This document shows positions 26,619 through 61,508 of a stretch of DNA of 64,000 nt, piece after piece. The position numbers were made by a program, and so were the translations under genes. Positions within the stretch are counted from its first letter, which is position 1. Every line of letters begins with the position of its first letter. The DNA is from a bacterium (GTDB lineage Bacteria; Auribacterota; UBA3054; JAPLST01): assembly GCA_026417575.1 (NCBI GenBank), contig JAOACZ010000128.1, positions 5,127-69,126 on the forward strand, given 5' to 3'. The notes below the pieces were generated by a model. That model had not been told where the DNA came from. It ran no database searches and worked only from the letters and a program-made list of their open reading frames with translations.

Positions 26619-26772
26619 GGTGGATGTGCCGCTATCGCATGGTGGGAGGGCGCGCGCAAACACTTGGGCGGGAGGGGACCGAACCGAGAAAATGTTATAC
26701 TAGGTGTGGGCGCAACATAAGCCCAAGGCACGCTCTTGTCCTACCGTTGTGTCACACACTCAAGGATCTGCC

Positions 26773-40524: not shown

Positions 40525-41751
40525 TTATTCCCTGGCGAAGGCAGCGACACGGGCGTCTGTGTCGTTCGTCAGGCGCGCGAGAAGAGCACGGGCTGCCTGA
40601 TTTGTTTCCATGCGCAGGCGGAATGCAAGGAAGCGCCGTGTATCTCTATCCTGCTCGCGCACAACTGGCGCGAGGAGGTGAGTGGTACGGGGAAGAGAAG
40701 CGAGGCAATCAATGGCTGCCGCGCGCGCCGTGAACGAGGTGCTGCGCAGAGAGGGCTGAACGTCGGCTAGTTTGGCCGAGAGTTGACCTGGTAAGCGCCA
40801 GAGGGTGAGGACGAGCATTGCTTCTGAGGAGATCGTGTTAATGGTAAACAGAATGGAAGAGGGTTGCTCCCAATTCCAACGGCAGGTATCGCGATCGCGG
40901 TTGCGGTTGGCGCGTAGGGCACGCCGCAACGTGGCGGCGCGCTGATCGGCGGACATTCGGAGGTTATAGACGGCGCGATACACAGGTTTATCCCAGAGGA
41001 ACGCGTAGGGATGCTGGCAGAGTAATTCAAGTGGTTGCAACGCCTGCGGCGCGCGAGAATGATCGAGGAGCACAGCGGCCGTGGTGAGGGCTTCCAGGGT
41101 CGTCCGCACGTCGAAGATCGTGTTGTTTCCAGCGGAGCGGTGTGGGAAGTCTAGGTCGGGAGCAGCTCCTGAGGGAGAAGGTGTGGCGCCCTGTAGATCT
41201 GGAAAAAGCTCTGGCCGAGCACGTACGGCAAACGCCCAAGCTGGTGTGAGGGGTTCGAGGCTACGCACATAGATAACGGGGGGAAGTGTGTGGAGTAAGC
41301 GCGTGATTTCTGCTGCGATCAACTCGTACACAGCAGGGTAGCGTGCGCGGTAGAGAGCCACGCAGGCAGCGGGCGTTAGGCGAAAGTGGTCGCGAATTAC
41401 GCTGTCAGCAGTAGGGTCATGAGTGCGCAGAGTAGCGAGCGCATGCAAGGCGTAGCCACGTGCAATATCAAGACTTTTTGGGTTGACCGTAGCGATTGTA
41501 CCAGCTTCGAACTCGTCACATCGTTGCAAGATGGCAGCGAGGGCGCGTACGCTGCGCTGATCGGGCAATTGAGCGAGGCGTATGGCATACTGCCGGAGTT
41601 CACTTGGAGAGAGAGCCAGGCGAGCGGCGTGCTCATACCGCTCGATTTCAGCCAGCTGGTCAGGGGAGAGAGCTGGCGCTGGGATGGCGCAGAGTACGGC
41701 GAGGAGTGCGCCAAGGAGTGATCGCCAGCGGGGGAATGGGCGGGAGGTCAT
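40525..41751 (-). CDS. Secreted hypothetical protein, helical-repeat-like
   Basis: Start revised to MTSRPFPRWRSLLGALLAVLCAIPAPA (ATGA overlap with the upstream stop at 41748-41751). No recognisable catalytic motif. Confidence 0.55.
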   Translation of the reverse strand: MTSRPFPRWRSLLGALLAVLCAIPAPALSPDQLAEIERYEHAARLALSPSELRQYAIRLAQLPDQRSVRALAAILQRCDEFEAGTIATVNPKSLDIARGYALHALATLRTHDPTADSVIRDHFRLTPAACVALYRARYPAVYELIAAEITRLLHTLPPVIYVRSLEPLTPAWAFAVRARPELFPDLQGATPSPSGAAPDLDFPHRSAGNNTIFDVRTTLEALTTAAVLLDHSRAPQALQPLELLCQHPYAFLWDKPVYRAVYNLRMSADQRAATLRRALRANRNRDRDTCRWNWEQPSSILFTINTISSEAMLVLTLWRLPGQLSAKLADVQPSLRSTSFTARAAAIDCLASLPRTTHLLAPVVREQDRDTRRFLAFRLRMETNQAARALLARLTNDTDARVAAFARE

Positions 41752-44700
41752 GGGGCGCTGGGCGAAGAGGAAAGCAGGATGGTGCGCATGGAGGCGTGGG
41801 TGAGGCGGTGGTTGGCATCGAGCAAGGCGGGGTACGTGTCTGGGGGAAAGACAGCAGGGCGTAGGCGGAGGTCCTGGGTCATGGGGAGGAGGTTGGTAGC
41901 ACTGCAATGCCACTTGGCACTGCAGCGGACGAAGCCAGTTTGTTGGGGGGCGTACCATGTGTACGTGGGCGGAAGTAACTCAGCGTGAGCGAAGGAAGTG
42001 GGCAGGTGTACGTGGGTGGTGATGGTTATTTCGTTGTCGCTGTCCCAGTAATACGGAGTTGAGCGTGTATCAGCCCGCAGGCCGGGCAAGCTGATTAAGC
42101 CGGCAGGCAAGGTGCCGTACAAACTTGTGCCGTCACGTACCAAGTAGCGTGGCACGTGGACAGTAAATTCCTCGACGCCCGGGTAGCGCTCGTGCTGGGT
42201 GTGGAGCGGGCCGATGGCGCGGGCGGCTTGAGAGATGTTAGCGACGAGTTCCAGGTAATGGCGACGGCGCTGTTCGGGCGTCATCTCAGTGTACTGTTTG
42301 CGAAACGCGCCGAACGAGGTGCCGTAGTAGACGCGCCGATACGTGAGGCGCGCGTCGCCTTGCTCGTCGACGGAGAGGTCGTAGAACAGTTCGGTGTGAG
42401 AGCGGCAGCGGCGGGGTGCGCGCACGCGAGTAAGCGTACCGGCCGGCAAGAGCAGCGCGGGCCGGCCATCATGACGTGTGACACCTAATTCGGCGTATTG
42501 GTCGGTGTCATTTAAGTACCACGTTTCGGCGCCACACAGGACGCGGACGAGGACGGTGGGGAACACGTGACGTTGCGGGCAGAGGAGGCGTGGGTTGTTT
42601 GGCCGGGTGAGGCGTGGCTCACTTGAGGCCAGGACGAATTCAGCTGTAACGCCGATGGCGCGAAGCATAGAGAGGTAAAGGATCGCGCGGTCTGCGCTAT
42701 GACCATAGCCATCATGGAGGGTGCGATCGGCGGGGGAGAGGGAGGTGAGTGGCATGGCAGGGAAGGGAGGCCCGGCGGCACGGATGTGTGTGGCGATGAA
42801 ATCACGCACCGCGCGGATTTTGGCGCGGCGACACGCGAGCCCCGCGGTGAGGGCTTGTGCGCGGGCGATCGCAGCGGTTTGCCCCTCGGTAGCACGGAGC
42901 AACGCGGCGTGCACTTCCGCTGCGTAGCGCTTCCAGGTACCGCAGGAGGCCACGACACCTGGGGCGAACATCCAGAGCGGGGGCTGATTTGGTTCTGGAG
43001 TGATTGGCGGTTGATTGGTCATTTCCCAGGTGTACTCGATGACAGCGTGGTTGCTGGCGATGGTTTCCATGACCTGGCCGCCGGGGGTGAAACAACGTGT
43101 GAAAGGCAACTCGAGCGGGACGCGGCAGCGCACACGCTTACGCTGGATCGGATCGAACGTGCGGAAGAGTGCGTAAAGGTCGCATGAGGGCCGGTGGCGC
43201 TGTGTGCGCTCCACGCAATACTCGATCGTACTGCCGATTTCCACGCCGGGCAAATTTACGACGAGGATTTTCTCGCCTGGGTAGCGCGGGGCCCTCCCTA
43301 CCCATGGGGCGTCCATGTAGTTGATTTCATTGGTGCTGGCAGTGAAGAGGCGGCCATCGGGCGTTGTCACGCGGGCGTAGTGGAGGGTGACCGTGTCCCA
43401 CACAGGATTGAAGGGAACTTTCAATTCGGCATGTTGTTTCTTACCGGCGTAGGTGAGGATCTGCTTTTTGACGCGTGTGAGGACACGTTGGGTGTGCGCA
43501 TCATGGACTTCATACAGTTCATCGGCGTCGTGAATAACGACGTCTCCGCGAGATGGGTCGGCCTCGCGCGCGAAAATAGCGCGTTTGCGGCGGTCGAACT
43601 CGATTGAGCGTAGAGCGTCTTTCAAGGCACGGTAGTCCTGAGGCGAGAACTCGACCAGGCGGAGTTGCTGGAGGGCGTGCGCATGGAGAACGCCGTCACG
43701 TACGGTCATCTGAGCCTGCCACACGAGGGAGGACGAGATGATGGCTTCGATGTGGGGGAGCGTGTGGACCGGCCCGGCCGCGCCATCCATGGTCAAACGG
43801 ATATTCTCGGAGACGCCGCAGGCGTACTTTGTTTCGAGGGGATACTTGCGCTCGTCCAGACCGGTTGCGCCAATGACGAAGTTGATCAGGCCGACGGAGG
43901 TGCCGAACCACAGAGGCGGCAACATGACGACTTGGGGGCCGACGATGGGGAATTCACGGGCTTCGTAGGTTAGGTGGACATGGAGGGGCTTGCTCATGTC
44001 GCGCAGTTCTCGTGGCGTGATTTCGCACGCGAGGATGCGTGCGCCAGGCACGACACGTTTGACGAGACCTTCAAACATGTGGCGGCGTTCTATTGGTTTC
44101 ATGCGCACCAGGGCGCTGCGGTACGCGTTGTCGTTAATACCGTCAAAGGAAAGCCGGGTTTGGGCGCGCAGCGTACCGTCGCGAGAAAGCTCCCCGGTCG
44201 TTTTGATGCGCATCATATTGGCCTCGGCTGGTATGATTGGGGAGACGCGTAAACAGTCGCCCGCGGGCTTCGCAACTAAATAACTCCGATCACATAAGTA
44301 CGCAGGGAGAAGTTCTTTGGTGGTTTCGTCGGTAGGATCCATGAGTGTGTACGAGCCGTCGGCTTCTTCCACAGCGACGACGGCGTGATTAAAGAAGGGC
44401 TGAGGCACCTCAGGATCTTTCTTGGGACCGATGTACATGAGGACAGGGTAGGCTTTGAAGCCAGCGAGGCGGAGCAAGGCAACTAGTAATGCGCCTTTGT
44501 CGCGACAGACACCGTATTTATTTTCGAAGGTGACGCAGACATCGTGGGGTTCGTAGCCGGGAGCTTCAGTTTCGGTGGTGATACCCATGTAGCGAATGTT
44601 TTGAGAGACGTAGTAGAAGAGGGCTTCGAGGCGGGCGCGGTCGTTTGTCAGGCCGGCGGTGAGTTCGGCGACGAAGTTGCTCATTGCGGGGGTGGTGGCG

Positions 44701-45539
44701 GCGAGGCGTGGAGCACAGAGGGCGTGATACCAGCGGGAGACCGTGGCCCAATCAGGAATGGTACTTACGAGCAAACGTTGTACGACGGTGTGGAGCGCGG
44801 GCATGTTTGGTTCTGGAAACATTCGGGGCACATTGCGTACTTTCCAGAGGTAGAAGTTAGTGCCGCCAGCCGAGTGCATGCTTGCGACGACGGTATTGGA
44901 CACAGGGGCCTTAATCACGAGGTGAACGAGGGGACGGCTGGTGGGCCCCCAAATTTCGTAGGTGCTATGGAGGATTGGTGAAGTGAGTTCGAAGAGGGTG
45001 TAATCACTGAAGGTGTCGGGCATGCGGGCTTTGGTGGTAATACGACGCACGACGTAGCGGCACAAGTCACCTGGTTCGAGCCCGGGGATGCTGACATGGA
45101 GGACTTTGCTCTGGGGGTCGAAAATATTTTTGTTCATCTGTGCATCATCTATGGTGATGCGACTTTGGGCGCTGAGATTGACAGGGATGATGCGGCCGTC
45201 TGGTTTGAGGAGTTCCACGAGCTCCACCATGGCGGTGCCGTAGCTGACATTAAAATGAATGGAGAGTGTGCGATTATCGCGCGCGCCTTTATCGGTGAGG
45301 ACTTTCACACAAGTGTCGGCGAGGCTTTCCCAGGTTCCGTTCGCGGCGTAGATGATGCGGGTGTGGTCGTCGACAAGGACGTCATCGGCGTCAGGGAAGG
45401 CAGCGCGGGTAATGTGAGCGCTCGTACGTTGCAAGGATGCGCGGTCGAGCAGGCCGATGGAGGGGGTGCTAAGGGCAAGGTGGGCTCCCAAGAGCACCGC
45501 GACGAGCACGCTCACGGCGTGCTTAGATGCAGTCTTCAT
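41748..45539 (-). CDS. Secreted DUF3857 / transglutaminase-like / DUF3858 protein
   Basis: 1263 aa with a signal peptide. The transglutaminase-core triad context is YGVCRDKGALLVALLRLAG ... FNHAVVAV ... LMDPTDE. Confidence 0.7.
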   Translation of the reverse strand: MKTASKHAVSVLVAVLLGAHLALSTPSIGLLDRASLQRTSAHITRAAFPDADDVLVDDHTRIIYAANGTWESLADTCVKVLTDKGARDNRTLSIHFNVSYGTAMVELVELLKPDGRIIPVNLSAQSRITIDDAQMNKNIFDPQSKVLHVSIPGLEPGDLCRYVVRRITTKARMPDTFSDYTLFELTSPILHSTYEIWGPTSRPLVHLVIKAPVSNTVVASMHSAGGTNFYLWKVRNVPRMFPEPNMPALHTVVQRLLVSTIPDWATVSRWYHALCAPRLAATTPAMSNFVAELTAGLTNDRARLEALFYYVSQNIRYMGITTETEAPGYEPHDVCVTFENKYGVCRDKGALLVALLRLAGFKAYPVLMYIGPKKDPEVPQPFFNHAVVAVEEADGSYTLMDPTDETTKELLPAYLCDRSYLVAKPAGDCLRVSPIIPAEANMMRIKTTGELSRDGTLRAQTRLSFDGINDNAYRSALVRMKPIERRHMFEGLVKRVVPGARILACEITPRELRDMSKPLHVHLTYEAREFPIVGPQVVMLPPLWFGTSVGLINFVIGATGLDERKYPLETKYACGVSENIRLTMDGAAGPVHTLPHIEAIISSSLVWQAQMTVRDGVLHAHALQQLRLVEFSPQDYRALKDALRSIEFDRRKRAIFAREADPSRGDVVIHDADELYEVHDAHTQRVLTRVKKQILTYAGKKQHAELKVPFNPVWDTVTLHYARVTTPDGRLFTASTNEINYMDAPWVGRAPRYPGEKILVVNLPGVEIGSTIEYCVERTQRHRPSCDLYALFRTFDPIQRKRVRCRVPLELPFTRCFTPGGQVMETIASNHAVIEYTWEMTNQPPITPEPNQPPLWMFAPGVVASCGTWKRYAAEVHAALLRATEGQTAAIARAQALTAGLACRRAKIRAVRDFIATHIRAAGPPFPAMPLTSLSPADRTLHDGYGHSADRAILYLSMLRAIGVTAEFVLASSEPRLTRPNNPRLLCPQRHVFPTVLVRVLCGAETWYLNDTDQYAELGVTRHDGRPALLLPAGTLTRVRAPRRCRSHTELFYDLSVDEQGDARLTYRRVYYGTSFGAFRKQYTEMTPEQRRRHYLELVANISQAARAIGPLHTQHERYPGVEEFTVHVPRYLVRDGTSLYGTLPAGLISLPGLRADTRSTPYYWDSDNEITITTHVHLPTSFAHAELLPPTYTWYAPQQTGFVRCSAKWHCSATNLLPMTQDLRLRPAVFPPDTYPALLDANHRLTHASMRTILLSSSPSAP

Positions 45540-46132: not shown

Positions 46133-49100
46133 TTACTGTTTTTTCTCCGGGGGGGGTAAGGGGATGTTGTCGAGCAAACCGCGGATCATCTTCACACCCG
46201 TGCCGAGTTCCTTGCGAATAGCTTCCGTAGGGAGTTTGTCGATGACATTTTGGAACAGGGCGCGCGGGTCGAGGCCGAGGAGGGGCATGAATTGGTCAAG
46301 TAAGGAGTTGTAGGGCAAGCCAATTTGTGGCTCTTTGAAAGTCCCGGTGATGGGGATGGGGAGGGGCAAATCGTAGTAGCGGCCGAGCTCGCCCGAGAAA
46401 GGCAGTTTATTATCGAGGAGATCGGTGATGCCTTTGGCGGTGAGGGCGAGATGCATCATCAGGTCGAGTTGCTGAGCGAAGGTGACGTTGCCACGGAGAC
46501 TGATGCGCGCGAGTGGGCCCTGCAAGGCGACAGAGGTAAGATGGACGATGCCGGTGTGAATGGAGATGCGAGCGAGGGCATCGCCGACAGTATAATTCTC
46601 GAGGGCTTCGAGATGCAGGGCGCGACCGACGGCGGAGAGGACGGGGACGTTGACGAGGCGGCCATTTGTCATATCGGCGTTGAGTGAGCCGCGGAGGTTG
46701 CGGGAGAGACTTGGGAGACGGATGCCGCGACCGGCGAGTGTGAGCTCTGTGGCGAGCAGGCCGTCAATGGTATCGCGGCGGTCTGGGGTGAATGTATTGA
46801 AGATAGGTTGGAGGGGGAGGTTGGTGAGGGAGAGGGCGAGGCGATAAGCGTAGCCAGTGAGAGTGAGATCAGCGTCTGCGGAGAGGTCAATCCGGCCGCC
46901 ATTGAGGCGGAGTTCTGGTGTACGGAGGGTGAGTTGGCCATTGTTGAGAGAGAGGTCGAGGTAGAGGGGGAGGAAGAGGAGCTCGCGGGCGCGGAGTTCT
47001 TCAATGCGTACGCGGACAGAGGCGTCACGGCCGTAGAGGGGGAGGGGTGGAGGTTCAGGTGCTGGGGTGGTGGTAGGCGGAGTGTGGGGGGGTGAAGATT
47101 CGCGGGGAGTGGGAGTGGGCTGAGGGGGTTTTGGGGGCATAAAGGTATCGAGCAACACGGTTGCATCGAATTGAGGGGAGGAGAGGGTAAGTGAGGTGGG
47201 AGCGTTGGTGGGCACGAGCATGACTTCGCCGTGGAGGCTGAGTTTGTTGTCGCTGAAGCGGGCGGGCTGGAGGTCGAGGGTACAGCGGGGGAGGCGAAGG
47301 AGGTCGGGGCGGAGTGCGGCGTGAAGATTGAGGCGCAGCTTATCCCAGTCTGAGGATGTGCGGCGGGCGGTGTTTTCGATGGCGAGGTCGAGGCCGATTT
47401 GTTGGGCTTTGCGGCTGGGGTCAGCTTTTTCGGTGAGAAGCTGGAGGGTAATATCGAGGCCTGCGAGGCGAGGGTTCTGTCTTTTTGGGTCGAGAAGTGG
47501 TTGGAGGACGGTGCTGGAGAGTTTAGCGATGGCGAGAGCAAGGCGATTTGTGCCGGTGGGCAAGTCATAGAAACCACCGAGAGCGATTTGGCCAGCGGGA
47601 ATGTTGTCGTTAGCGATTTGGGCACTGGCGCGGTCTATGACGATGTGCTTGAACTGAGACAGGTTGGCGGCCCAATTGAGGGCGAGATCGAGGTCATTCC
47701 AGTGCGCCTGGTGGAGCTGGAGATTGAGGTCGCCGATAGAGAGGGAGCCACGCGCGGCGAGTGAGGAACCGAAATCGACAACATCGCAGGTGGCGCGGGC
47801 GGAGCAGACACCGGCATTGAAGCGAGAGGGGGTTGAGCGGAGGAAGGCGTTAAGTTGGGATAGATCAAAACGGTCGAGGACGAGCTCGAGGGAGGCTTTT
47901 TCGGAGGTAGCGCGGCGGGCAGCGGTTTTCCAGCAGAAGGTGACGGGTTGGAGGGTACGGGCGGTAAGCAACGTACGTTGGTGTTGGGCTGCGGTGATGA
48001 GGAGATCGGGGAGGGCGAGTTGGCCGAGACGGAGATCGAGAGTGGTGGAGGTGCGAGCGGTGAGGTCGAGCGGGGGCAAGAAAGAGCCATCGGGGGCACG
48101 CAGGCGGAGTTGTGTGAGGCGAGCGGAGAGCTGGGCGGTGAGGGTCTGGGCGTCGGCGCGAGCGAGGGTAGCGAGGGTCACATCGGCGCGAGTGTCACTG
48201 ATGTCGAGCGGTGCGGAAGGCCCGAGCAGGGCCTGCCAGAACGGGCTGGCGTTAAGTTTTAACATGAGTTGATTGTTAATGAGCTGCTGGGCGACGTCAA
48301 GCGAGCCTGTGAGGGAGAGGAAGGCGAGGAGGTCGTTCTGCCAGCGCAGGGTGGCGTCACAGCGGCTCAATTCGAAGCGATCCACACCGCGCTGATGGAG
48401 GTCGATGGAGCAGAGCAGGGTGAGTGGCGTGACATCAAATTGATCGAGGCGACCGAGCAAATTAGAGGCAGTGCAAGAGAAAGTGAGGGAAGACGGGATG
48501 ATGGTGTCTTCAAAGCGCGTATCGAGGCGCAAAGAGAGGGGGACGCGGGAGAGGAGGATGCGGTGGCCATCGGTGAAGGCGAGGGAAGCATCGAGGACAA
48601 GTGAGCCGCGGCGATGGGGGCCGATGCGCTGGGCGGTGAGAGAAAGGCCGGTGATATCGGCATGGGTTCCGGAGAGATCGAAGTAGGTGATGCGGGCATT
48701 GCGGACACGGAGTTCACCGATTGCGACGGGGACGGGGATATTGGGCAAGCGCGGGGGCGGGATGGGTTGTTCGGCACGTGGTGGGCGGGGTGGTGGGGTG
48801 GGGGGCTCGGCGGGTGCTTCTGGGGGGCGCGCGGCGAGACCGATGACGGGGCGGTCAATGATTATGCGATCAATGTGGAGGGGGGAGTCGAGGAGGGCGG
48901 GCAATGTATAACGGACATCGAGTGAGTGAACTTCGATTAGCACGTTGGTCGCGGCGTCGTCGGGCGAGATTTGCTGGATCCGCAGGCCTTCGAGCGCCAG
49001 CGATGACCAGAGGCGTAGGCGCCAGCCTGCGAGACTAACATGATAGGGCGTGAAGCGATTCACTATCGGGACAACGATCCTGCGGACAACAAAGGAGGAG

Positions 49101-49192
49101 TGAATCGCGAGAACAATCAGTACAAGCAGCACCACAACCGCGCCGCCGCCGCCGCCGACGATCCGTAGAACACGCCTGAGCCAACGTTTCAT
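46133..49192 (-). CDS. AsmA-like / DUF748-type large envelope protein
   Basis: 1019 aa. N-terminal TM anchor (RIVGGGGGAVVVLLVLIVLAI), a long beta-rich body, two Pro-rich linkers, and an AsmA-like C-terminal region. Family assignment is by architecture. Confidence 0.55.
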   Translation of the reverse strand: MKRWLRRVLRIVGGGGGAVVVLLVLIVLAIHSSFVVRRIVVPIVNRFTPYHVSLAGWRLRLWSSLALEGLRIQQISPDDAATNVLIEVHSLDVRYTLPALLDSPLHIDRIIIDRPVIGLAARPPEAPAEPPTPPPRPPRAEQPIPPPRLPNIPVPVAIGELRVRNARITYFDLSGTHADITGLSLTAQRIGPHRRGSLVLDASLAFTDGHRILLSRVPLSLRLDTRFEDTIIPSSLTFSCTASNLLGRLDQFDVTPLTLLCSIDLHQRGVDRFELSRCDATLRWQNDLLAFLSLTGSLDVAQQLINNQLMLKLNASPFWQALLGPSAPLDISDTRADVTLATLARADAQTLTAQLSARLTQLRLRAPDGSFLPPLDLTARTSTTLDLRLGQLALPDLLITAAQHQRTLLTARTLQPVTFCWKTAARRATSEKASLELVLDRFDLSQLNAFLRSTPSRFNAGVCSARATCDVVDFGSSLAARGSLSIGDLNLQLHQAHWNDLDLALNWAANLSQFKHIVIDRASAQIANDNIPAGQIALGGFYDLPTGTNRLALAIAKLSSTVLQPLLDPKRQNPRLAGLDITLQLLTEKADPSRKAQQIGLDLAIENTARRTSSDWDKLRLNLHAALRPDLLRLPRCTLDLQPARFSDNKLSLHGEVMLVPTNAPTSLTLSSPQFDATVLLDTFMPPKPPQPTPTPRESSPPHTPPTTTPAPEPPPLPLYGRDASVRVRIEELRARELLFLPLYLDLSLNNGQLTLRTPELRLNGGRIDLSADADLTLTGYAYRLALSLTNLPLQPIFNTFTPDRRDTIDGLLATELTLAGRGIRLPSLSRNLRGSLNADMTNGRLVNVPVLSAVGRALHLEALENYTVGDALARISIHTGIVHLTSVALQGPLARISLRGNVTFAQQLDLMMHLALTAKGITDLLDNKLPFSGELGRYYDLPLPIPITGTFKEPQIGLPYNSLLDQFMPLLGLDPRALFQNVIDKLPTEAIRKELGTGVKMIRGLLDNIPLPPPEKKQ

Positions 49193-50781
49193 GGCGATGT
49201 GCTCTCTGGCTGAAGGATTAAGAATGTTGGCAGTCCTTTCACGCCGAAGTAGGCCAGGATCTCTTTTGTCGGGGACTGGGTAGGAACTTCAGCTATGTAC
49301 TTAATTTTAATATAGCGCACTAAGCGCTCGTTCACCCGTGCATTTCGGAAGGTGGTTGCGTCCATGGCGAGACAGTTTTTACACCAGGATGCCCAGAAGT
49401 CGAGGAACACCGGCTGGCGTGTGCGTTGAGCGATAGTAAGGCCTTCGACGAGAGAAGTTACCCAGCCGGGATGAGCCGACGGCGTTGGGGAAACGACGCG
49501 CGAGCGTGCGCGCAAGAGACGAACGCCCTCATACCCATACCAAAGCGCAATAATGAAGATAAGCGCGCCGAATGCGTATTTGACCTTGTTCATCCACGCA
49601 CCAGGCTTCGGCAAAAGGGTCAAGCCAGCCCCGGCGAGCGGCCAGGGTAAAGCCATGCCAAGCCCCAAGATGAATGGAAGGAGCATACCCGCCCATAGAC
49701 CGCGCGCGTACATGTCCATCGCCAGCACGAGAACTTGAATGACGACAGGGGCGACACATGCGCCAGCTAAAAGGGCAGCGATGGCGCCTAGCACAAAGGC
49801 CACGATCAACGATCCTTGCTTTGGTGCGACGGCGATCTGCCCCCGATACCGTGTGAAGTCGATGGTGATTACATCACACATAGCGAGTGCCAGGACGCCA
49901 AACAAGAGAGCGACGGCAAGATTGAACCATGGTGAGGCGTTAAGCGTGCCAAACTGAGCCCCAGTCAGTGCTACGACCACGCCCAGGGTACCGTAAGCGA
50001 GGGCCATACCGGCGCCGTACATGGCGCCGAGGAAGAAACCGCGCATGCGTGAACCCGCACGCGCGCCCGCACCAAGTACGGCGAGATTGACGGGAATCAT
50101 GGGCAACACGCAGGGCGTTAAATTTAGTGCGACACCACCGAGCAGGATGAGCAGTAAAGAAAGCCAGATACGTTGGCGCTGGAAGCGACTGAGGACAGAT
50201 TCTTCAGGTGGGGCGGAGCCTTCTGCACGATCCAGGAAAGCGAGAAAGTCACGGGCTGCGAGGTAACCGGAGGCTGTGCCGACGACGCGGAATCCACGCG
50301 CGAGAGTCTGCCAGTCTGCATCGAGAGGGGCCCCCAGTGTTGCAGGACGAACGACCGCGGATATCATGCCGTTGGGGCTGACGTTAAAGTGCCGTGTTAC
50401 GGGCGGGAAGCAAATCAGCTCGGCAGCGCTGCAGCCTTGGTACTGAACCGTCACAACCGTGGTGGTGGGTGGGCCTGTCAGGAAGTAGCGCGCTGTGAAA
50501 GATTCGTGATAGAGCGAGGTTTCTTCTTGTGTAAGGGGATCGAGTTTCCTGACGGGTGCAGGGATGTCGAGCGGTGCGAGCACGTGCGGCGGATTCGCGG
50601 CTACGCGGAGTGTATGCGCATAGAGATAATGCTGGGGTGGAACGACGTAGGTAACCGTGAGGACCGTACCGGAGGGTGTCTGTGCTTCGGAGGCAATGTG
50701 CACATCGAAAGGTGCATCGGCGCGGACAGCAAGTGCAGGAATCGCGACAAGCAAGACGAGTGAGCACCACATGAAGCGCAT
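49189..50781 (-). CDS. dsbD: Thiol:disulfide interchange protein DsbD (three-domain)
   Basis: Alpha domain YQGCSAAELICFPP, TM domain LNLTPCVLPMIPV and AGACVAPV, C-terminal thioredoxin FLDFWASWCKNCLAMD. Confidence 0.8.
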   Translation of the reverse strand: MRFMWCSLVLLVAIPALAVRADAPFDVHIASEAQTPSGTVLTVTYVVPPQHYLYAHTLRVAANPPHVLAPLDIPAPVRKLDPLTQEETSLYHESFTARYFLTGPPTTTVVTVQYQGCSAAELICFPPVTRHFNVSPNGMISAVVRPATLGAPLDADWQTLARGFRVVGTASGYLAARDFLAFLDRAEGSAPPEESVLSRFQRQRIWLSLLLILLGGVALNLTPCVLPMIPVNLAVLGAGARAGSRMRGFFLGAMYGAGMALAYGTLGVVVALTGAQFGTLNASPWFNLAVALLFGVLALAMCDVITIDFTRYRGQIAVAPKQGSLIVAFVLGAIAALLAGACVAPVVIQVLVLAMDMYARGLWAGMLLPFILGLGMALPWPLAGAGLTLLPKPGAWMNKVKYAFGALIFIIALWYGYEGVRLLRARSRVVSPTPSAHPGWVTSLVEGLTIAQRTRQPVFLDFWASWCKNCLAMDATTFRNARVNERLVRYIKIKYIAEVPTQSPTKEILAYFGVKGLPTFLILQPESTSP

Positions 50782-50799: not shown

Positions 50800-51030
50800 C
50801 TATCCGCTCATTTTACAACTTCCGCAGCCGGCAGAGGGGCATGTAGGCAATTGCTCCCGCATACCACACGCAGTCGGGGCATTAGTTGTGACGGCGAAGG
50901 TAGTCAACTGAAGTGTAACCTCGCGGCTGTTGCAGTGCGGGCAACGCTGTTTATTGCGCTCCTTATAACTTGGCACGAGGATTTCTGACTGATTTCCACA
51001 AGCGCGACAATGATAGACGTAGAGAGGCAT
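50800..51030 (-). CDS. FmdB-family zinc-ribbon protein
   Basis: MPLYVYHCRACGNQSEILV...CPHCNS (CxxC...CxxC) with a Cys-rich tail CPSAGCGSCK. Confidence 0.75.
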   Translation of the reverse strand: MPLYVYHCRACGNQSEILVPSYKERNKQRCPHCNSREVTLQLTTFAVTTNAPTACGMREQLPTCPSAGCGSCKMSG

Positions 51031-51048: not shown

Positions 51049-51597
51049 TTACTTACGATGTGGTGGAATGGTGCCTGGAGCGAGCAGTTTGGTTTCAATC
51101 ATGAAGGCAAGGCGATCAGGCTTCGTAGTACCAACGAGGCGATACTGTTCACGGCCGGCGCGGAAGAAGACAAAGGTCGGAACAGAGAGGATAGTGTATT
51201 GAGGTTCGAGCTTGCGCAGGGCGGGCTTACTGATGTCCACTTCGGCCACGCACACTTGGTCAGCAAAGTCACGTGCCATGCGATGCAGAGTGGGGAGCAT
51301 CATGACGCAGGGTGCGGACTTGCGCTGATGAAACATGACCAGGACAGGGAAGGAGTTACTAAGGACTTCGCGGACAAACTCAGCGGGTAGTTCGACGGAG
51401 AACACCGCGCCGGTGGTACTGGTGCGGAGAGGTTGGCCAGTGGCCGGCGTGACGAAATTAGCGAGTGTGGTGGTTCCTTGTGCTGTGGGAGGGGCCGCGG
51501 GCGGCGTGGTGGTCGGGTTCTCGCGTGAACAGCCGGCCATCACGCCGATCATCGTCATCGCGCTCAGCCACGCTGTGCCAACCTTCCGCGCCCGCAT
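51049..51597 (-). CDS. Thioredoxin-fold lipoprotein, monothiol (SxxC) active site
   Basis: Lipobox VMAGC. The Trx-like core VLVMFHQRKSAPCVMMLPTL has Ser in place of the first active-site Cys, and VPTFVFF is present. Confidence 0.6.
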   Translation of the reverse strand: MRARKVGTAWLSAMTMIGVMAGCSRENPTTTPPAAPPTAQGTTTLANFVTPATGQPLRTSTTGAVFSVELPAEFVREVLSNSFPVLVMFHQRKSAPCVMMLPTLHRMARDFADQVCVAEVDISKPALRKLEPQYTILSVPTFVFFRAGREQYRLVGTTKPDRLAFMIETKLLAPGTIPPHRK

Positions 51598-51621: not shown

Positions 51622-52137
51622 TTATTTGCATTCGCCGCACGGGGGTGGACAGGCTGGAGGACAGCTCGGCGGGCACGGCTTCTTCCAGGACTTTTTGCCC
51701 TTGCACGGGTAGGGGCAGGGGCGGCCCTTGGGTGCGAGCGGGATGCAGCCTTGCCGTGGATTTACGTACGTTTGCTTTGTGGGTGGGATCCAGCGCGCAT
51801 CCCACACAAAATCTGGCACGAGGTCATGGTAGTACAGGCCTTTGCCCGTCAGCCCGAACGTGACGACATCTGTTACGCCTGCGAGCTCACGCCAGGTTGT
51901 TAAAAAAGCACCTTTGATCGGCCCGCTGAGGAAGCCTACGATCGGGATGCGGGAGTTTTCATAAATCAGGCCACGCGGAATTTCGAGCCAGCCCGTCATG
52001 ATGTTCGCGAAACCGCGCGCCACCCCGTAAGCCGGGTTGATCGGTTTGGCGCCAGACGGCCTCGCCTGGTGCGACTTGCCAGCCATCAATGTCGTTGCTG
52101 CCATCAGAACGGCAAGTGCACATGCGAGTGCTTTCAT
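51622..52137 (-). CDS. Small secreted protein, paralog 1 of the W-x-E-[IL]-PR family (TIGR04073-like), Cys/Pro/Lys-rich tail
   Basis: Signal peptide. Core ARGFANIMTGWLEIPRGLIYEN...AGVTDVVTFGLTG...VPDFVWDARW. Tail CIPLAPKGRPCPYPCKGKKSWKKPCPPSCPPACPPPCGECK. SD GAGGAG. Confidence 0.7.
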   Translation of the reverse strand: MKALACALAVLMAATTLMAGKSHQARPSGAKPINPAYGVARGFANIMTGWLEIPRGLIYENSRIPIVGFLSGPIKGAFLTTWRELAGVTDVVTFGLTGKGLYYHDLVPDFVWDARWIPPTKQTYVNPRQGCIPLAPKGRPCPYPCKGKKSWKKPCPPSCPPACPPPCGECK

Positions 52138-52207: not shown

Positions 52208-52237
52208 ATTGTACCACACCTCCAGGGCTGTTTGCAA
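52208..52237 (-). promoter_or_regulatory. sigma70-type promoter of paralog 1
   Basis: Minus strand reads TTGCAA-18 nt-TGgTACAAT. It sits back to back with the aminopeptidase promoter. Confidence 0.4.
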
Positions 52238-55290: not shown

Positions 55291-56256
55291 ATGCGGTGGT
55301 TTTGGTTAATTTGCGCACTGATGTCGGCCTTGGCAACAAGGGCGTACGCCGCAGGTGAGGGGCCAGGAAGCTTGATAGTGATTACGAATGCGCGCTACGT
55401 TGCGCGCGGCGGGAACGACGGGGATAGTTTTCACGTAGCGCTCGATGGTCAGGTGCGCGCGGTGCGTTTGTACTTCGTCGACACGCCAGAAACGACGGCG
55501 TCAGAACTAACCGTGCGTCGGGTGCGTGAGCAGATGCGCTATTTTGGACACACGAATCCGGCGCACACTGTGGCGTATGGGCATCGTGCGGCGGCGTTCA
55601 CGCGCCGGCTGCTGCGTCAGCCGTTCACTGTCTATACGGCGTTTGCCAATGCGCTCGGCAGCACGGAGGGCGGGCGTATCTATGTGTTCGTGGTGACTGC
55701 GGACGGCAAAGATCTTGGCGAGGAGTTGGTGAGGCGTGGACTGGCACGCGCCTATGGCATGGGCCGCACCACGCCTAGTGGCCTTTCGCGTGAAGAGTAC
55801 GCAGCCCGGCTGTGCGACTTGGAACTGGTAGCGGCGATGACGCGCGCGGGGGCATGGGAGGCGAGCGTACCTGAACGTTTGGTGAAGCTACGCGCGCAGG
55901 AGCGGGAGGAAGCGCAGGGAGTGCGTGCAATCACGAGCTCCCTCGCTGCGCAACATTCGCGCATTAACCTGAACACCGCGACACGCGAGGAACTGATGCA
56001 GCTTAAGGGTGTCGGTGCCAAGCGCGCGGAAGCAATTATGCGTGCGCGGCCCTTTACGTCAGCTGCGGACGTGTTTTCGCGTGCCAGGCTTGCCACGGCG
56101 CGTAACGCACGCGATACTCTCCCAGGTGGAATGGTAAAACTGGGGGCACGGTTGCACTCAGCGCGGGTGAGGCTGCGTAGTGCCCTCTTAGGCCATGCGC
56201 TCGATAACGTGGCGCCCAAACTCCGAACACTTGACTTCGCGGGCTCCTTCCATTAG
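55291..56256 (+). CDS. Secreted staphylococcal-nuclease-like (SNase) / ComEA helix-hairpin-helix fusion protein
   Basis: Signal [20 protein letters not shown]. SNase motifs GNDGDSFHV...[10 protein letters not shown]...GLARAYG. ComEA-like [31 protein letters not shown]. The last 69 nt overlap the 3' end of icd. Confidence 0.7.
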
Positions 56257-57459
56257 TCGCGCAAAATCATATGTGACAATCTTGTCCGCGATAGTGCGCT
56301 CAAGTCCCCGCACGATCAAATCGGCTGCTTCCTGCCACCCCAAGTATTCGAACATCATCACACCGGAAAGGATTACCGAGCCAGGGTTCACGACGTCTTT
56401 ATCTGCGTATTTCGGAGCAGTGCCGTGGGTCGCTTCGAAGATGGCATGGCCGGTCATGTAGTTGATATTCGCGCCGGGGGCAATTCCAATTCCGCCCACT
56501 TGCGCTGCGAGCGCGTCGGAGAGATAATCACCATTCAGGTTCATGGTTGCCAACACGTCAAACTCTCTGGCGCGGGTAAGGGTCTGTTGGAAGCAAATAT
56601 CGGCGATGACATCCTTGATCAAAAGCTTGCCAGCAGCAAGTGCGGCCTGCTGTTCTGCGTTTGCCGCGGCCTCGCCGCGTTCTTTCTTTGTGTGTTCCCA
56701 TTGCTGCCAAGTATAGACCTTGTCAGCGAATTCACGCTCGGCCACCTCATAGCCCCAGGTGCGGAAGGCTCCTTCGGTGTACTTCATAATATTGCCTTTG
56801 TGAACCAAGGTGACACTGCGGCGCTTGTGCTTAAGGGCGTAGGTGATGGCGGCGCGGACGAGGCGCTCTGTTCCTTCGCGTGAGACGGGCTTGATACTGA
56901 TGCCCGCGGTGGCGGGGAAGCGTATCTTGGCAAACTCGGCGGGGAAGTGTTCCTTGAGAAGGCCAAGGAAGCGATCGCGCTCTGGCGTGCCGTCTTGAAA
57001 TTCGATCCCAGTGTAGATGTCCTCCGTGTTCTCGCGGAAGATGACCATGTTGACATCTTGAGGGCATTTGACCGGGGAGGGGACGCCTTCAAACCAGCGT
57101 ACCGGGCGCAGGCAGACGTACAAATCAAGCAACTTGCGCAGAGCGACATTTAAGCTGCGAATCCCGCCACCCACAGGTGTTGTGAGCGGGCCTTTGATGG
57201 CCACGCGGTAGGTGCTGATCGCGTCAAGTGTGGCTTGGGGCAGCCAGTCGCCCGTCTGTGCAAACGCCTTTTCTCCGGCGAGAACTTCCAGCCACTCAAT
57301 ACGGCGCGTGCCACGATACGCCAGGCGCACAGCGGCGTCAAACACCGGTTGTGCCGCACGCCAGATATCGCGCCCGGTACCGTCGCCTTCAATGAACGGA
57401 ATGGTGGGCGTGTCAGGTACACACAGCGCACCGCTGGGGTCAAGTACAATTGTTGCCAT
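56188..57459 (-). CDS. icd: NADP-dependent isocitrate dehydrogenase
   Basis: 423 aa with [48 protein letters not shown]. Confidence 0.9.
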
Positions 57460-57468
57460 GAGACTTGT

Positions 57469-58887
57469 TTAGTACCGGTAATGAGGCGGCTTGTACGGTC
57501 CGTCAATGTCAACGCCGATGTACGCGGCCTGCTCGGGGGTGAGCCGCGTCAATTTGGCGCCAAGCTTTTCTAAATGTAGGCGAGCCACTTCCTCGTCAAG
57601 CTTTTTCGACAAGGTGGTCACGCCAATTGGTTTGCGTTCGCGCGCCAAATCAATTTGGGCCATGACTTGGTTGGTGAATGAGTTTGACATGACGAAGGAA
57701 GGGTGGCCTGTGGCGCAGCCTAGATTCACAAGTCGGCCCTCAGCGAGCAAGTAAATCGAGTGACCGTCGGGAAATGTGTACATATCCACTTGCGGTTTGA
57801 TGTTGGTGCGTTTGACGCCGGGTGCTCTCTTCAATGCGTCCACTTGGATTTCGTTGTCGAAGTGTCCGATGTTGCAGACGATGGACTGGTCGAGCATCTT
57901 TTCCATGTGTTCCAAGCGGATGACGTTGATGTTGCCGGTAGCCGTCACAAAGATAGTGGCTTCAGCCAATGCGTCCTCGACGGTGGTGACTTTGTAGCCC
58001 TCCATGGCAGCCTGCAGGGCACAGATAGGATCGATCTCAGTAACTAGTACACGCGCGCCAAACCCGCGCATGGATTGACAGCATCCTTTGCCCACATCGC
58101 CGTAGCCGCACACGCATACCGTCTTGCCCGCGACCATTACACCCAGTGCGCGCTTCAGCCCGTCGGCGAGTGATTCGCGACAACCGTACAAATTGTCGAA
58201 TTTCGACTTGGTAACCGAATCGTTTACGTTGATGGCAGGGAAAAGAAGGGTGCCGTTTTGCAGCATCTGGTACAAGCGGTTGACGCCGGTCGTGGTCTCT
58301 TCCGAGACGCCACGAATCTCCTTGACAATGCGGTGCCAGTACGTGCGGTCGCGCTTCAGCTGCCGTTTGAGAATCGCGTTGACCACAGCAAGTTCTTTGT
58401 TGCCGTTATCATCCTCGAGGATGGCTGGGTTTTCCTCGGCGGCGTAGCCACGGTGAATCAGTAAGGTGGCATCACCTCCGTCATCCACGATTTGATGTGG
58501 GCCTTTACCGCCCGGGAAGCTTAAAGCGCGCCGTGTACACTCCCAGTACTCTTCCAGCGTTTCTCCTTTCCACGCGAAGACAGGAATGCCAGCCTTCGCA
58601 ATTGCGGCTGCTGCGTCGTCCTGGGTGGAGAAAATGTTGCATGAGGCCCACTGCACCTGTGCACCGAGAGCCCGCAAAGTCTCGATCAACACAGCCGTCT
58701 CGGTCGTCATGTGCAACGAGCCAGTGATACGCAGCCCTTTCAGTGGCTGCTCCTTGGCATATTTTTCTCGCGTAGCCATGAGGCCGGGCATCTCATGTTC
58801 TGCAATCGTGATTTCCTTTCGGCCAGCCTCGGCAAGGCGAATATCCGCGACTTTATACTTGAGTTTGCTGTAATCCGGTAATCTCAT
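57469..58887 (-). CDS. ahcY: Adenosylhomocysteinase
   Basis: 472 aa with [34 protein letters not shown]. Confidence 0.9.
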
Positions 58888-58933: not shown

Positions 58934-59560
58934 TCAGTACGGTGTTTCCATATTTTCTTCGACGGCTTCTTCCTCCTCGAACTCGACTTGGAGGCTTTCT
59001 TCGCCTGGGGCGGGTGGCGCGTAGGGGGACCACTGTGCTGCGAACACAAATTCCGGAAAGAGGTCAGGTGAGAATGCACTTGGTCCGGTCATACCGAACA
59101 TCATGACATCCACAACTCCGAGGACGGCGCGGGAAGTCATGAAGAAGAGACCTTTTAGCAAGCCGCTTCCTATGCCAAGGACCGGAAAATTGACATTTTC
59201 AATAACCAGGTTGCGGGGCAATTCCAGCCAGCAGGTAGAAAGGTTTACGCATCCACGAAAGAAGGCCCAGGGAGGGTTGAGCTCGCGCGGGTAGGTGGGG
59301 CGGGGCGGGGGTGCGGGCGTTGGTACTGGCGTAGGAGTTGGCAACGCCGCAGCCTCTGTCGCAGGCTTGGCAGCCGCTGTTGGCGCTACTGGCGGAGGGC
59401 TCACAGGGGTGGGAGCGGAGGGGGGCGTTGCGAGCGTTGGTGCATTAGTTGCGATTGCATTAGCGCTCACATGTGCCACCGTGCTGATGTTTGTCGCGTG
59501 CGTAAGCCACGCACTGCCCAGGGCAATTGTTAGGCTCGCGATCAAGCGCTGTGTCTTCAT
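58934..59560 (-). CDS. Small secreted protein, paralog 2 of the W-x-E-[IL]-PR family, A/P/T-rich linker and acidic tail
   Basis: Signal peptide, SD AAGGAG. Core FFRGCVNLSTCWLELPRNLVIEN...LGVVDVMMFGMTG...FPEFVFAAQW. Tail EESLQVEFEEEEAVEENMETPY. Confidence 0.7.
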   Translation of the reverse strand: MKTQRLIASLTIALGSAWLTHATNISTVAHVSANAIATNAPTLATPPSAPTPVSPPPVAPTAAAKPATEAAALPTPTPVPTPAPPPRPTYPRELNPPWAFFRGCVNLSTCWLELPRNLVIENVNFPVLGIGSGLLKGLFFMTSRAVLGVVDVMMFGMTGPSAFSPDLFPEFVFAAQWSPYAPPAPGEESLQVEFEEEEAVEENMETPY

Positions 59561-59634
59561 CTGGAACTCCTTGTGACGTCTGGTGTGGCGAATAGCTCAT
59601 CTATGCAAGATGGGTAGACTCCTCCTCATGCAGC

Positions 59635-60042
59635 TTAGTAGAGCTCAGCTTTGTCCGAGAGCCAGGGGTCTTCCCACGGATAATCAGGCACGGCCGTAGC
59701 ATAGCCATAATGGCCCGTGTAACCAACGGAAAGCAGGTCCACCACGCCGAACAGCGTGCGCATCGCAGTCATAGTTGTGCCCATGAGAGGGCCGGTGAGC
59801 ACTGCCGAGAGAGGCCTTCGAGTGAATTCGTAACTTAAATTGCGGGGCAGCTCGAGCCAGCCCAACAGCACATTGGCTGCGCCGCGTTGCATCCCGAAAC
59901 GCATGGCCTCGCCTGTGGTGTCAAACTCGTATTCTGGCATGAGGGCGAAGGCAGCGTCGTCTCCCTCATTTTGGGCGCGCACGAGCGTGGGATTGGACAC
60001 TATGAGAAGAATCGTGACGAGTATTGCTGCAAAAGGTTTCAT
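59635..60042 (-). CDS. Small secreted protein, paralog 3 of the W-x-E-[IL]-PR family (minimal form)
   Basis: Start revised to MKPFAAILVTILLIV. Core MQRGAANVLLGWLELPRNLSYEF...FGVVDLLSVGYTG...VPDYPWEDPW. Confidence 0.7.
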   Translation of the reverse strand: MKPFAAILVTILLIVSNPTLVRAQNEGDDAAFALMPEYEFDTTGEAMRFGMQRGAANVLLGWLELPRNLSYEFTRRPLSAVLTGPLMGTTMTAMRTLFGVVDLLSVGYTGHYGYATAVPDYPWEDPWLSDKAELY

Positions 60043-60069
60043 GAAAGAACGTCTCCGTGACATAAGGGA

Positions 60070-60843
60070 TTACCGTGGGGGGCGGGGTGTGCCGCCGGGG
60101 AGTGTTGGGTCAGCCACGCTAGCTGCTGGTGGCGGAGGGGCAAGGGATGGAGCGCTGCGTACACGTGCATCTGTAGTGCCCACCGTGACGGGGGCTGTGC
60201 CCGGCTGAACAATTTTGCGTGGGGTAGCTGGGCCAACGGGTTCGTCGCTGGTGTGAAGTGTAGGCGGCTGGAGCGTTTCGTGATAGAACCAATCGCCTTG
60301 CCACACGAAGTCAGGGTAACCGCGCGCCAACCGTATGTCGCCGAAGTAACCCAGAGTCACTATGTCGGCCACACCCGCCGACATTCGGCTCATACCGCCG
60401 CCGAGGCCAGCTAGCCATGACGTGCCCAGTGCTTCATACCATGGGCGCTGGCTAGAGAATTCATACGTGAAGCCGCGCACAAGCTCGCCGGGCCAGAGGG
60501 TGAGGTTGGCAAACCCTCGCCAGAGACCGAAACCCATGACACGCCAGAGAGCAGTTGTGCGCATGGGAGGGGCGGTAAGTTCCTGGTAAGCGGATTCGCT
60601 GAGCAGATCGAGGTCCGGCACAGCCGCAGGTTGTGCGCCCGTAGGGCGAGCTTGCCCCAGCTCGGCGCGCGGAACCACAGGCGCGGCGAGCGGCAATCGC
60701 TCGGGAGCCGACGTTGGCGCACTCGCGCCAGCGCGCCCCACTACGCTTGTCGCCGGCTCCAATACCTGTGGTAACAGGACGTCGCCGTGTGCCAGCCATG
60801 CGGTGGCCACTACTGCTGCCCCAAGCCAACGGAGCGTCTTCAT
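60070..60843 (-). CDS. Secreted protein, paralog 4 of the W-x-E-[IL]-PR family (divergent), Pro-rich N- and C-extensions
   Basis: Start revised to MKTLRWLGAAVVATAWLAHG. Core LWRGFANLTLWPGELVRGFTYEF...AGVADIVTLGYFG...YPDFVWQGDW. Confidence 0.6.
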   Translation of the reverse strand: MKTLRWLGAAVVATAWLAHGDVLLPQVLEPATSVVGRAGASAPTSAPERLPLAAPVVPRAELGQARPTGAQPAAVPDLDLLSESAYQELTAPPMRTTALWRVMGFGLWRGFANLTLWPGELVRGFTYEFSSQRPWYEALGTSWLAGLGGGMSRMSAGVADIVTLGYFGDIRLARGYPDFVWQGDWFYHETLQPPTLHTSDEPVGPATPRKIVQPGTAPVTVGTTDARVRSAPSLAPPPPAASVADPTLPGGTPRPPR

Positions 60844-60890: not shown

Positions 60891-61469
60891 TTACTCGCGA
60901 AACGACCACCAGTATGCTTCCACGCGGCGCGCAAACACGGGTAAACTTTCGCGCACCGTCTGCTTACACTCCCAACGGGGTTTGGTTAACGACCACATTG
61001 AGTACTGACCATTTCCCTGCGGTGTCGTCACGAATTCCACGTACTCAGGGACGTCCACCTCAATCGCCAGTGCGCGCCATACGCCGTCATCCTCAACCAG
61101 GTGTACATACAGAGCGCCTTTGGTGATGTTGGGGGGCGGTGTCTCACGCACGCACACAAATGGTACCACTGCAAGCATGCCATTCGTGGCTGCGTAGAGA
61201 TTCTGCACTTCCCAGCGCAAGCTCAACACGCTGTAGCGTAAGAGCTGAGTACAACCCGGGAAGTTTGTCAACGCCGCTCGCAAGCTGGGCATACAGTACA
61301 TGCCTGCACGGCGCATATCCCCGCGAGCCACCGCTCGCAACAACCCATTCACAGCCTCTTCCGGCGCTACCTCGCATCCTGCCACGAGCCCAGCTGTAGC
61401 TGCCACTAACGCCAGCACGCATGTGTGCCGTGCGAGCGCCCGACCGCCAGGCTTCGTGTGGCATTTCAT
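60891..61469 (-). CDS. Hypothetical lipoprotein
   Basis: Start revised to MKCHTKPGGRALARHTCVLALVAATAGLVAGC (lipobox). No recognised catalytic motif. Confidence 0.55.
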   Translation of the reverse strand: MKCHTKPGGRALARHTCVLALVAATAGLVAGCEVAPEEAVNGLLRAVARGDMRRAGMYCMPSLRAALTNFPGCTQLLRYSVLSLRWEVQNLYAATNGMLAVVPFVCVRETPPPNITKGALYVHLVEDDGVWRALAIEVDVPEYVEFVTTPQGNGQYSMWSLTKPRWECKQTVRESLPVFARRVEAYWWSFRE

Positions 61470-61479
61470 ACTGCCAGTG

Positions 61480-61508
61480 ATTATAACAAATGCCACGTGA
61501 ATCGGCAA
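61480..61508 (-). promoter_or_regulatory. sigma70-type promoter placed for a near-leaderless lipoprotein transcript
   Basis: Minus strand reads TTGCCG-17 nt-TATAAT-cactggcagt-ATG, only 10 nt between the -10 and the start codon. Confidence 0.5.

Follow-up and report, generated by a model that had tools for sequence, protein, structure and literature searches.

Gly-zipper outer-membrane lipoproteins of the SlyB/Pcp type are small helical hairpins of the cell envelope that pack through G-x3-G-x3-G repeats and are thought to act by oligomerising at a membrane. Two further envelope systems invite comparison with the proteins described here: the cysteine-rich, YTV-domain cell-wall proteins, which have been reported only in Planctomycetales (PMC8567305), and E. 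coli ydbH, which has two small partners, an outer-membrane lipoprotein and a periplasmic protein, YnbE and YdbL (PMC11126948, PMC13464000). TIGR04073 is a protein family catalogued years ago to which no fold, partner or function had been assigned. We analysed a 64-kb stretch of a bacterial metagenome-assembled genome (MAG; assembly GCA_026417575.1, contig JAOACZ010000128.1, positions 5,127 to 69,126), hereafter the window, to whose first letter all coordinates refer. Four of its genes encode small exported proteins with a shared core, which we call p1 (51622-52137), p2 (58934-59560), p3 (59635-60042) and p4 (60070-60843). We conclude that these are real paralogs of the uncharacterised family TIGR04073, and that they had been correctly recognised as such in a sequence-only reading of the window.

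The core recalls the SlyB/Pcp-type proteins in being a small envelope hairpin with a glycine zipper, although this likeness is one of working principle only and is unproven. p1-p4 differ from those proteins in three respects: they have conserved Arg, Glu and Asp residues within the hairpin, they have no lipobox cysteine on inspection of their N-termini, and they match none of the Pfam Gly-zipper models at E<=1, as is also true of 102 diverse relatives that we collected, at E<=0.01. Given that they lack a lipobox, p1-p4 are not lipoproteins.

The sequence-only reading had proposed four homologous minus-strand open reading frames (ORFs), and all-versus-all comparison of the encoded proteins bears this out. 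Pairwise BLASTP matches span the ~85-aa core, with E values from 2e-5 (p2-p4) to 7e-27 (p1-p2), and 16 of the 88 columns in an alignment of the four cores are invariant. A hidden Markov model (HMM) built from the cores of the 102 relatives detects four members in the window and no more. A further paralog of the same MAG, P0011 (N2595_06955), is encoded on another contig. The GenBank gene models on the 97.6-kb source contig (N2595_06160, N2595_06200, N2595_06205 and N2595_06210) use start codons identical to ours, and all four products are annotated ‘hypothetical protein’. The three motif blocks described for the core were also correct, except that p3 reads N-V where the motif was given as N-[IL]. 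As had been noted, p4 diverges in the first block, with W-P-G-E-L-V-R in place of W-L-E-L-P-R.

Each protein begins with what appears to be a signal peptide, again in agreement with the earlier reading: by inspection, all four N-termini have a basic n-region, a hydrophobic h-region of 12-17 residues and a c-region of small residues, with putative cleavage sites LMA/G, THA/T, VRA/Q and AHG/D. Across the family, the median of the best 12-residue hydropathy within the N-terminal 35 aa is 2.67. Beyond the signal peptide, the four proteins differ in what surrounds the core. p3 (135 aa) has the minimal, family-typical architecture, with a short acidic linker and the core (59656-59910). In p1 (171 aa), the core (51784-52041) is followed by a 53-aa Cys/Pro/Lys-rich tail that contains eight Cys and ends in CPPPCGECK. 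In p2 (208 aa), the core (59024-59281) lies between an Ala/Pro/Thr linker of ~70 aa and an acidic tail, and in p4 (257 aa) the divergent core (60283-60543) is flanked by a Pro/Ala-rich N-terminal arm of ~100 aa and a Pro-rich C-terminal arm of 70 aa. p4 belongs to a distinct, long-armed subfamily, together with P0024, P0039, P0041, P0045 and P0047 (P numbers denote individual relatives; L numbers, below, denote genomic contexts).

The sequence-only reading had assigned the core to TIGR04073, and an NCBIfam scan showed this to be the sole family matched by any of p1-p4. The TIGR04073 model (‘exosortase system-associated protein’ in NCBIfam/TIGRFAMs) has 75 positions and a curated cutoff of 50 bits for the whole protein. 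Only p1 reaches the cutoff, at exactly 50.0 bits; p3 (47.2 bits, E = 1.7e-12), p2 (37.5 bits, E = 1.9e-9) and p4 (19.7 bits, E = 6.5e-4) fall short, and are therefore homologues of TIGR04073 rather than members by the curators' criterion. With the broader HMM, by contrast, p1 scores 127 bits, p2 110 bits, p3 104 bits and p4 69 bits (E = 3.5e-20), and TIGR04073 itself is matched by 102 of the 102 relatives. On these profile scores, p2, p3 and p4 are clearly homologous to the family, and their scores with the old 75-position model are underestimates.

The family is large. An exhaustive search of 1.84 billion representative proteins with a profile of the four cores returned 531 clusters at E<=1e-3 and 145 at E<=1e-10, counted at 50% identity. 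A profile search of genome contigs with an alignment of the p1 group returned four loci, and a tblastn search of plasmids gave no match. Members are usually 110-170 aa long and consist of a signal peptide, a variable linker and the core. Median lengths are 48 aa for the segment ahead of the core and 22.5 aa for the tail; tails exceed 40 aa in 48 of 128 members, and linkers and tails alike are enriched in Pro, Ala, Thr and Glu. p1-p4 thus share with the family a signal peptide and a short conserved core, and like it they are uncharacterised, whereas their Pro-rich arms make p2 and p4 far longer than the usual member. One relative, P0020 (212 aa, from a metagenome library), is a natural fusion of two cores, the only one among the 150 best-scoring matches listed.

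Structure prediction of the core, which the earlier reading had suggested as a check, gave a confident fold. AlphaFold2, run on p3 with a 102-sequence alignment, returned a model with a mean predicted local distance difference test (pLDDT) score of 87.8 and a predicted template-modelling (pTM) score of 0.71. In this model, helices 43-75 and 77-104 form an antiparallel two-helix hairpin, which is followed by a confident, non-helical, Trp-rich C-terminal segment carrying the P-[DE]-[FY]-V-W-x3-W motif. The near-invariant residues of helix 1 are R53, G54, N57, E64, P66, R67 and Y71 (R-G-x2-N...E-x-P-R...Y); those of helix 2 are G80, G84, G88, T92, R95, G99, D102 and G107, in the pattern G-x3-G-x3-G-x3-T-x2-R-x3-G-x2-D-x4-G. 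Column statistics and helical wheels place these conserved residues in a single stripe of ~120 degrees on each helix. Roughly two-thirds of the surface of either helix lies outside the stripe; it is made up of Leu, Val, Ile and Phe and is variable, with 2-3 bits of entropy. Soluble globular proteins have a conserved hydrophobic core and a variable polar surface; the TIGR04073 hairpin has the reverse pattern. The periodicity suggests that the conserved stripe of one helix faces that of the other. Whichever way they face, a monomer would be expected to leave much hydrophobic surface exposed.

Since the hydrophobic surface left exposed on a monomer would be excessive, our preferred interpretation is that the core serves as a docking or assembly module that becomes buried, and that p1-p4 are Sec-exported proteins of the envelope which combine this module with paralog-specific extensions. 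We put this forward tentatively, as the leading candidate among several readings but at somewhat less than even odds. The proteins would be exported to the cell envelope of an uncultured diderm bacterium; genes for LpxA and for an AsmA-like protein in the window point to a host of this kind. The hydrophobic faces of the core would then be buried by self- or hetero-association, in a membrane leaflet or in the groove of a partner, and the products of the tandem genes p4, p3 and p2 would be the obvious candidates for hetero-association. The extensions would supply the role specific to each paralog, with the Pro-rich arms acting as periplasmic spacers.

Two cysteines in the core deserve mention in this connection. 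Positions 61 and 68, which lie seven residues apart on the same face of the helix (T-C-W-L-E-x-P-R-C), are both Cys in 19 of the 102 members; p2 has only the first. We considered this pair as a marker of a disulfide-linked dimer interface, and rejected it as too weak: the odds ratio of 3.1 (p = 0.01) takes no account of phylogeny and is based on 19 of 102 members.

The same ‘inside-out’ pattern, with conserved polar residues and a variable hydrophobic exterior, could also be that of an integral membrane hairpin, whose helices would span the inner membrane or re-enter it after Sec targeting, with the polar/glycine zipper buried between them and the linkers and tails in the periplasm. The aromatic-rich motif that follows helix 2 would fit such a topology, and single members match Pfam families of membrane hairpins, namely HIG_1_N and the TrbC/VirB2 pilin family PF04956; the latter was matched by one of the 102 members (E = 1e-4) and by none of p1-p4. 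However, for the best 19-residue Kyte-Doolittle window the family median is 0.66 in helix 1 and 1.24 in helix 2, and the reference value of 1.6 is exceeded by only 1-3% of members. By this measure, neither helix is hydrophobic enough for a classical transmembrane span. The hairpin would also have to accommodate five near-invariant charges (R53, E64, R67, R95 and D102), and the loop between its helices (Y-E-N-x-R-x-P) carries no net positive charge. We therefore consider a membrane-integral hairpin unlikely, at perhaps one chance in five.

The family name suggests another role, in which TIGR04073 proteins are true accessories of a PEP-CTERM/exosortase system, for example periplasmic adaptors or scaffolds for its substrates or for the associated exopolysaccharide. 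Two observations could be taken in its favour. First, the window contains an ORF (28772-30157, minus strand, 461 aa) in which the model NF041518 detects a choice-of-anchor Q domain (31.2 bits; the cutoff is 25) and whose C-terminus, VPEG-FLPTVLAALLLLCL-QRR, has the look of a PEP-CTERM variant; this tail may be a variant sorting signal. Second, in a relative (context L008) the tandem trio p4-p3-p2 lies ~6 kb from a gene for an M28 peptidase ending in AVPEP-hydrophobic-RR. However, the PEP-CTERM HMM gave no match on the window tail, and on the L008 tail it scored 13.5 bits against a cutoff of 16. Moreover, no exosortase or PEP-CTERM Pfam family was found among the large ORFs of the window, or within 7-10 kb of family members in seven other contexts (L001, L008, L010, L016, L017, L018 and L019). 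The Auribacterota genome paper makes no mention of exosortase. p1-p4 differ from what the name TIGR04073 implies in that no exosortase context was seen around them. Co-occurrence of TIGR04073 with an exosortase system at the level of genomes is possible, but an association by phylogenetic profile could merely mirror a shared taxonomic range. We conclude that there is no local gene linkage to exosortase in the contexts examined, and that the ‘exosortase’ label stands at most for co-occurrence within genomes. An exosortase accessory role is somewhat less probable again than a membrane hairpin.

The segments outside the core had been described as hypervariable tails. It is true that these modules differ between paralogs; they are not hypervariable, however, since each is conserved among the orthologues of its own paralog. 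In the closest orthologue pairs, tails are 49-69% identical, compared with 84-90% for cores. The p1 tail is 49-58% identical among orthologues P0002-P0006, all of which terminate in CPPPCGxC[KRQ]. The acidic tail of p2 is 69% identical in P0019, in which the motif SLQVEFEE...MET[PA]Y is kept. P0024 is 85% identical to p4 in the core and 63% in the C-terminal arm, and retains the terminal PTLPGG[TA]PR[PA]PR. Because the orthologues of each paralog keep its tail, the paralogs are old subfamilies that have been maintained by orthologous descent. It is also this conservation that leads us to assign the paralog-specific role to the extensions. We looked for tails ending in an aromatic residue, as in PDZ- or BAM-type signals, and discarded this possibility, as the C-terminal residues are mostly Lys, Glu and Arg.

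Other members have distinctive tails of their own. P0011, the fifth paralog of the MAG, forms with P0007-P0010 a subfamily that has a strongly conserved C-terminal module, RRKVRVTIPFDLGPAD..RIKA.DARI.EIE.RAGIWR, after a Cys-containing linker; no DsbD/AsmA cassette of the kind described below was seen at the P0010 locus. P0021 and P0035 are further Cys-tailed members, encoded on short contigs.

The Cys/Pro-rich, extracytoplasmic segment of p1 and its orthologues is reminiscent of Cys-rich envelope proteins in the Planctomycetes-Verrucomicrobia-Chlamydiae (PVC) group, such as the YTV-domain proteins; the closest named relative of p1 and its orthologues also falls in this group. p1 differs from the YTV proteins in showing no homology to them and in that its Cys-rich part is a tail of ~50 aa attached to a TIGR04073 core; cross-linking is hypothetical for p1.

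p1 is the first gene of a compact minus-strand run of five. A thioredoxin-fold lipoprotein gene (51049-51597, Pfam Thioredoxin) begins 24 nt downstream of p1, and is followed by genes for a small FmdB-type zinc-ribbon protein (50800-51030, Pfam Zn_ribbon_8), for DsbD (49189-50781; Pfam N-terminal, transmembrane and thioredoxin domains, with the cysteine motifs present) and for an AsmA-like/DUF748 protein of 1019 aa (46133-49192). The second and third gaps are 18 nt each, and the AsmA-like gene overlaps the dsbD stop codon by 4 nt. A promoter-like site (52208-52237, minus strand; TTGCAA-18-(TG)TACAAT) lies ~70 nt upstream of p1, as judged from a pattern match only. L001, L003 and L016 show these five genes in the same order, with p1 orthologues that are 63-71% identical. 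P0004 (71%) and P0006 (63%), which originate from separate samples, lie in cassettes of this order whose flanking genes differ. The linkage of p1 to DsbD and the AsmA-like protein is absent from the sequence-only reading, and it is the most concrete functional lead that we have, as it is the paralog with eight cysteines in its tail whose cassette includes DsbD, an importer of reductant into the periplasm. Under the docking-module interpretation, the Cys/Pro/Lys tail of p1 would probably be kept reduced, or be cross-linked, under the control of the cassette-encoded DsbD. The thioredoxin-fold lipoprotein has SAPC where a CxxC site would be expected, and its L016 orthologue has SAPS (orthologues at 8508-9056 in L001 and 891-1451 in L016). 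It is likely, from these motifs, to be redox-inactive despite adjoining DsbD.

The cassette could instead be read, for p1 only, as that of an intermembrane lipid bridge, in which p1 would serve the AsmA-like protein as accessory subunit or chaperone and the thioredoxin-fold lipoprotein would provide the anchor in the outer membrane. The arrangement resembles that of YnbE and YdbL in that a small exported protein lies beside a lipoprotein in one cassette with an AsmA-like protein, and the small partners of E. coli YdbH provide a precedent (PMC11126948, PMC13464000). Consistent with this, the five-gene order is tightly spaced and is kept in the window and three further lineages, and a hairpin with a hydrophobic exterior would be a suitable partner for a lipid groove. 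However, we detected no sequence resemblance to either YnbE or YdbL, TIGR04073 being the sole Pfam or NCBIfam match, and the p1 cassette differs from the YnbE/YdbL/YdbH system in also containing DsbD and the zinc ribbon and in being confined to the p1 orthologue group. No other family member examined adjoins an AsmA-like gene, and the Cys-rich tail would be left unexplained. We regard such a bridge partner, proposed by analogy, as improbable, at roughly one chance in eight. Least likely by some distance is that p1-p4 are Spy/CpxP/ZraP-like chaperones or stress proteins of the periplasm, which they resemble in being small, exported and predicted helical hairpins, but from which they are set apart by the lack of any LTXXQ/CpxP-like Pfam match even at E<=1, by different conserved motifs, by a variable surface that is hydrophobic rather than charged, and by long low-complexity arms and multiple tandem paralogs, which are not features of that group.

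Several results weigh against the docking-module interpretation, or at least withhold support from it. The statement in the sequence-only reading that the family has no known function holds: p1-p4 have no Pfam match at E<=1 and no Pfam family is consistently matched by the 102 relatives; a sequence search of the PDB found no relative, with only chance-level matches to ribosomal protein S5 (E = 0.16); a fold search gave no significant match for the core; a full-text search of a literature library found no paper dealing with the family; and we found no experiment that bears on its function. The assignment of signal peptides to p1-p4, on which export depends, comes from inspection of the n-, h- and c-regions. 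When we modelled the two-core fusion P0020 with AlphaFold2 as a proxy for dimer packing, the alignment covered the first core only and the second core had a pLDDT of 45-57. A relay of electrons from DsbD through the thioredoxin-fold lipoprotein to the p1 tail is weakened by the presence of SAPC or SAPS in place of CxxC; with a neighbour that lacks this motif, a simple relay is not supported. Finally, distant family members lie among unrelated housekeeping genes, so that their neighbourhoods are uninformative as to the partner of the core.

The other three paralogs lie in a tight same-strand run that consists of a lipoprotein gene, p4, p3, p2, ahcY and icd. The gaps, which had been put at 75 nt or less, are 47 nt (lipoprotein-p4), 27 nt (p4-p3), 74 nt (p3-p2), 46 nt (p2-ahcY) and 9 nt (ahcY-icd). 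The lipoprotein gene (60891-61469, minus strand) encodes 192 aa with the lipobox LVAG/C. It is lineage-restricted, is always found upstream of the trio, and has no Pfam or NCBIfam match; since its only homologues are close, syntenic ones, it offers no functional lead. A promoter-like site (61480-61508, minus strand; TTGCCG-17-(TG)TATAAT, with an extended -10 element) ends 10 nt ahead of the lipoprotein ATG (61467-61469), and there is no Shine-Dalgarno sequence. If this match to the consensus pattern is a promoter, it implies a transcript leader of ~3-4 nt, consistent with the earlier description of the gene as near-leaderless. A terminator-like site after phoU also precedes the run. At the other end of the run, ahcY (57469-58887, minus strand), directly downstream of p2 and named adenosylhomocysteinase in the source, and icd (56188-57459, minus strand) were identified from their translations and from AdoHcyase and Iso_dh, respectively, in the syntenic context L008. 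The same gene order, including an SNase/HHH gene beyond icd, is found in L008 and L009, where the p3 orthologue is 66% identical. Family members are also clustered elsewhere: L014 contains an adjacent pair, and in L007 a pair lies within 4 kb.

The only named genome that carries a homologue is that of Ca. Tritonobacter lacicola (Ca. Auribacterota, PVC group). Among the other genes of the window are those for a transglutaminase-like/DUF3857 protein of 1263 aa (41748-45539, minus strand) and for a peptidase C10 (streptopain-family) protein (26704-28779, plus strand); many further peptidases are encoded, of families M14, M20, M28 and M29. Between 22000 and 56000, the window has an unusually strong GC skew, with plus-strand values of +0.13 to +0.41 irrespective of gene strand; for example, the skew is +0.33 over gltB, on the plus strand, and +0.38, again for the plus strand, over the AsmA-like gene, on the minus strand. 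At the flanks (1-21 kb and beyond 60 kb) the skew is near zero or negative.

What is new here for TIGR04073 is a confident predicted fold, a glycine/polar zipper hairpin with a hydrophobic exterior; an estimate of family size, at ~530 clusters; evidence that the extensions are marks of orthologous subfamilies and not random low-complexity sequence; and a reproducible link of the Cys/Pro-tailed subfamily to a cassette with DsbD and an AsmA-like protein. A bolder version of these ideas is that the core is an unrecognised ‘inside-out’ hairpin whose oligomers bind lipid or are embedded in it on the periplasmic side of a membrane, with the arms providing an envelope scaffold and p1 acting as a DsbD-controlled, Cys/Pro-rich cross-linker or as the partner of an AsmA-like bridge. 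We consider this doubtful, with the odds well against it; if it were true, the hairpin oligomers, the arms and p1 would together constitute a new system of envelope architecture. The finding as it stands is a modest one, which reveals no new mechanism and will not surprise the specialist. It does provide testable handles on the biology of the envelope in poorly studied, mostly uncultured bacteria.

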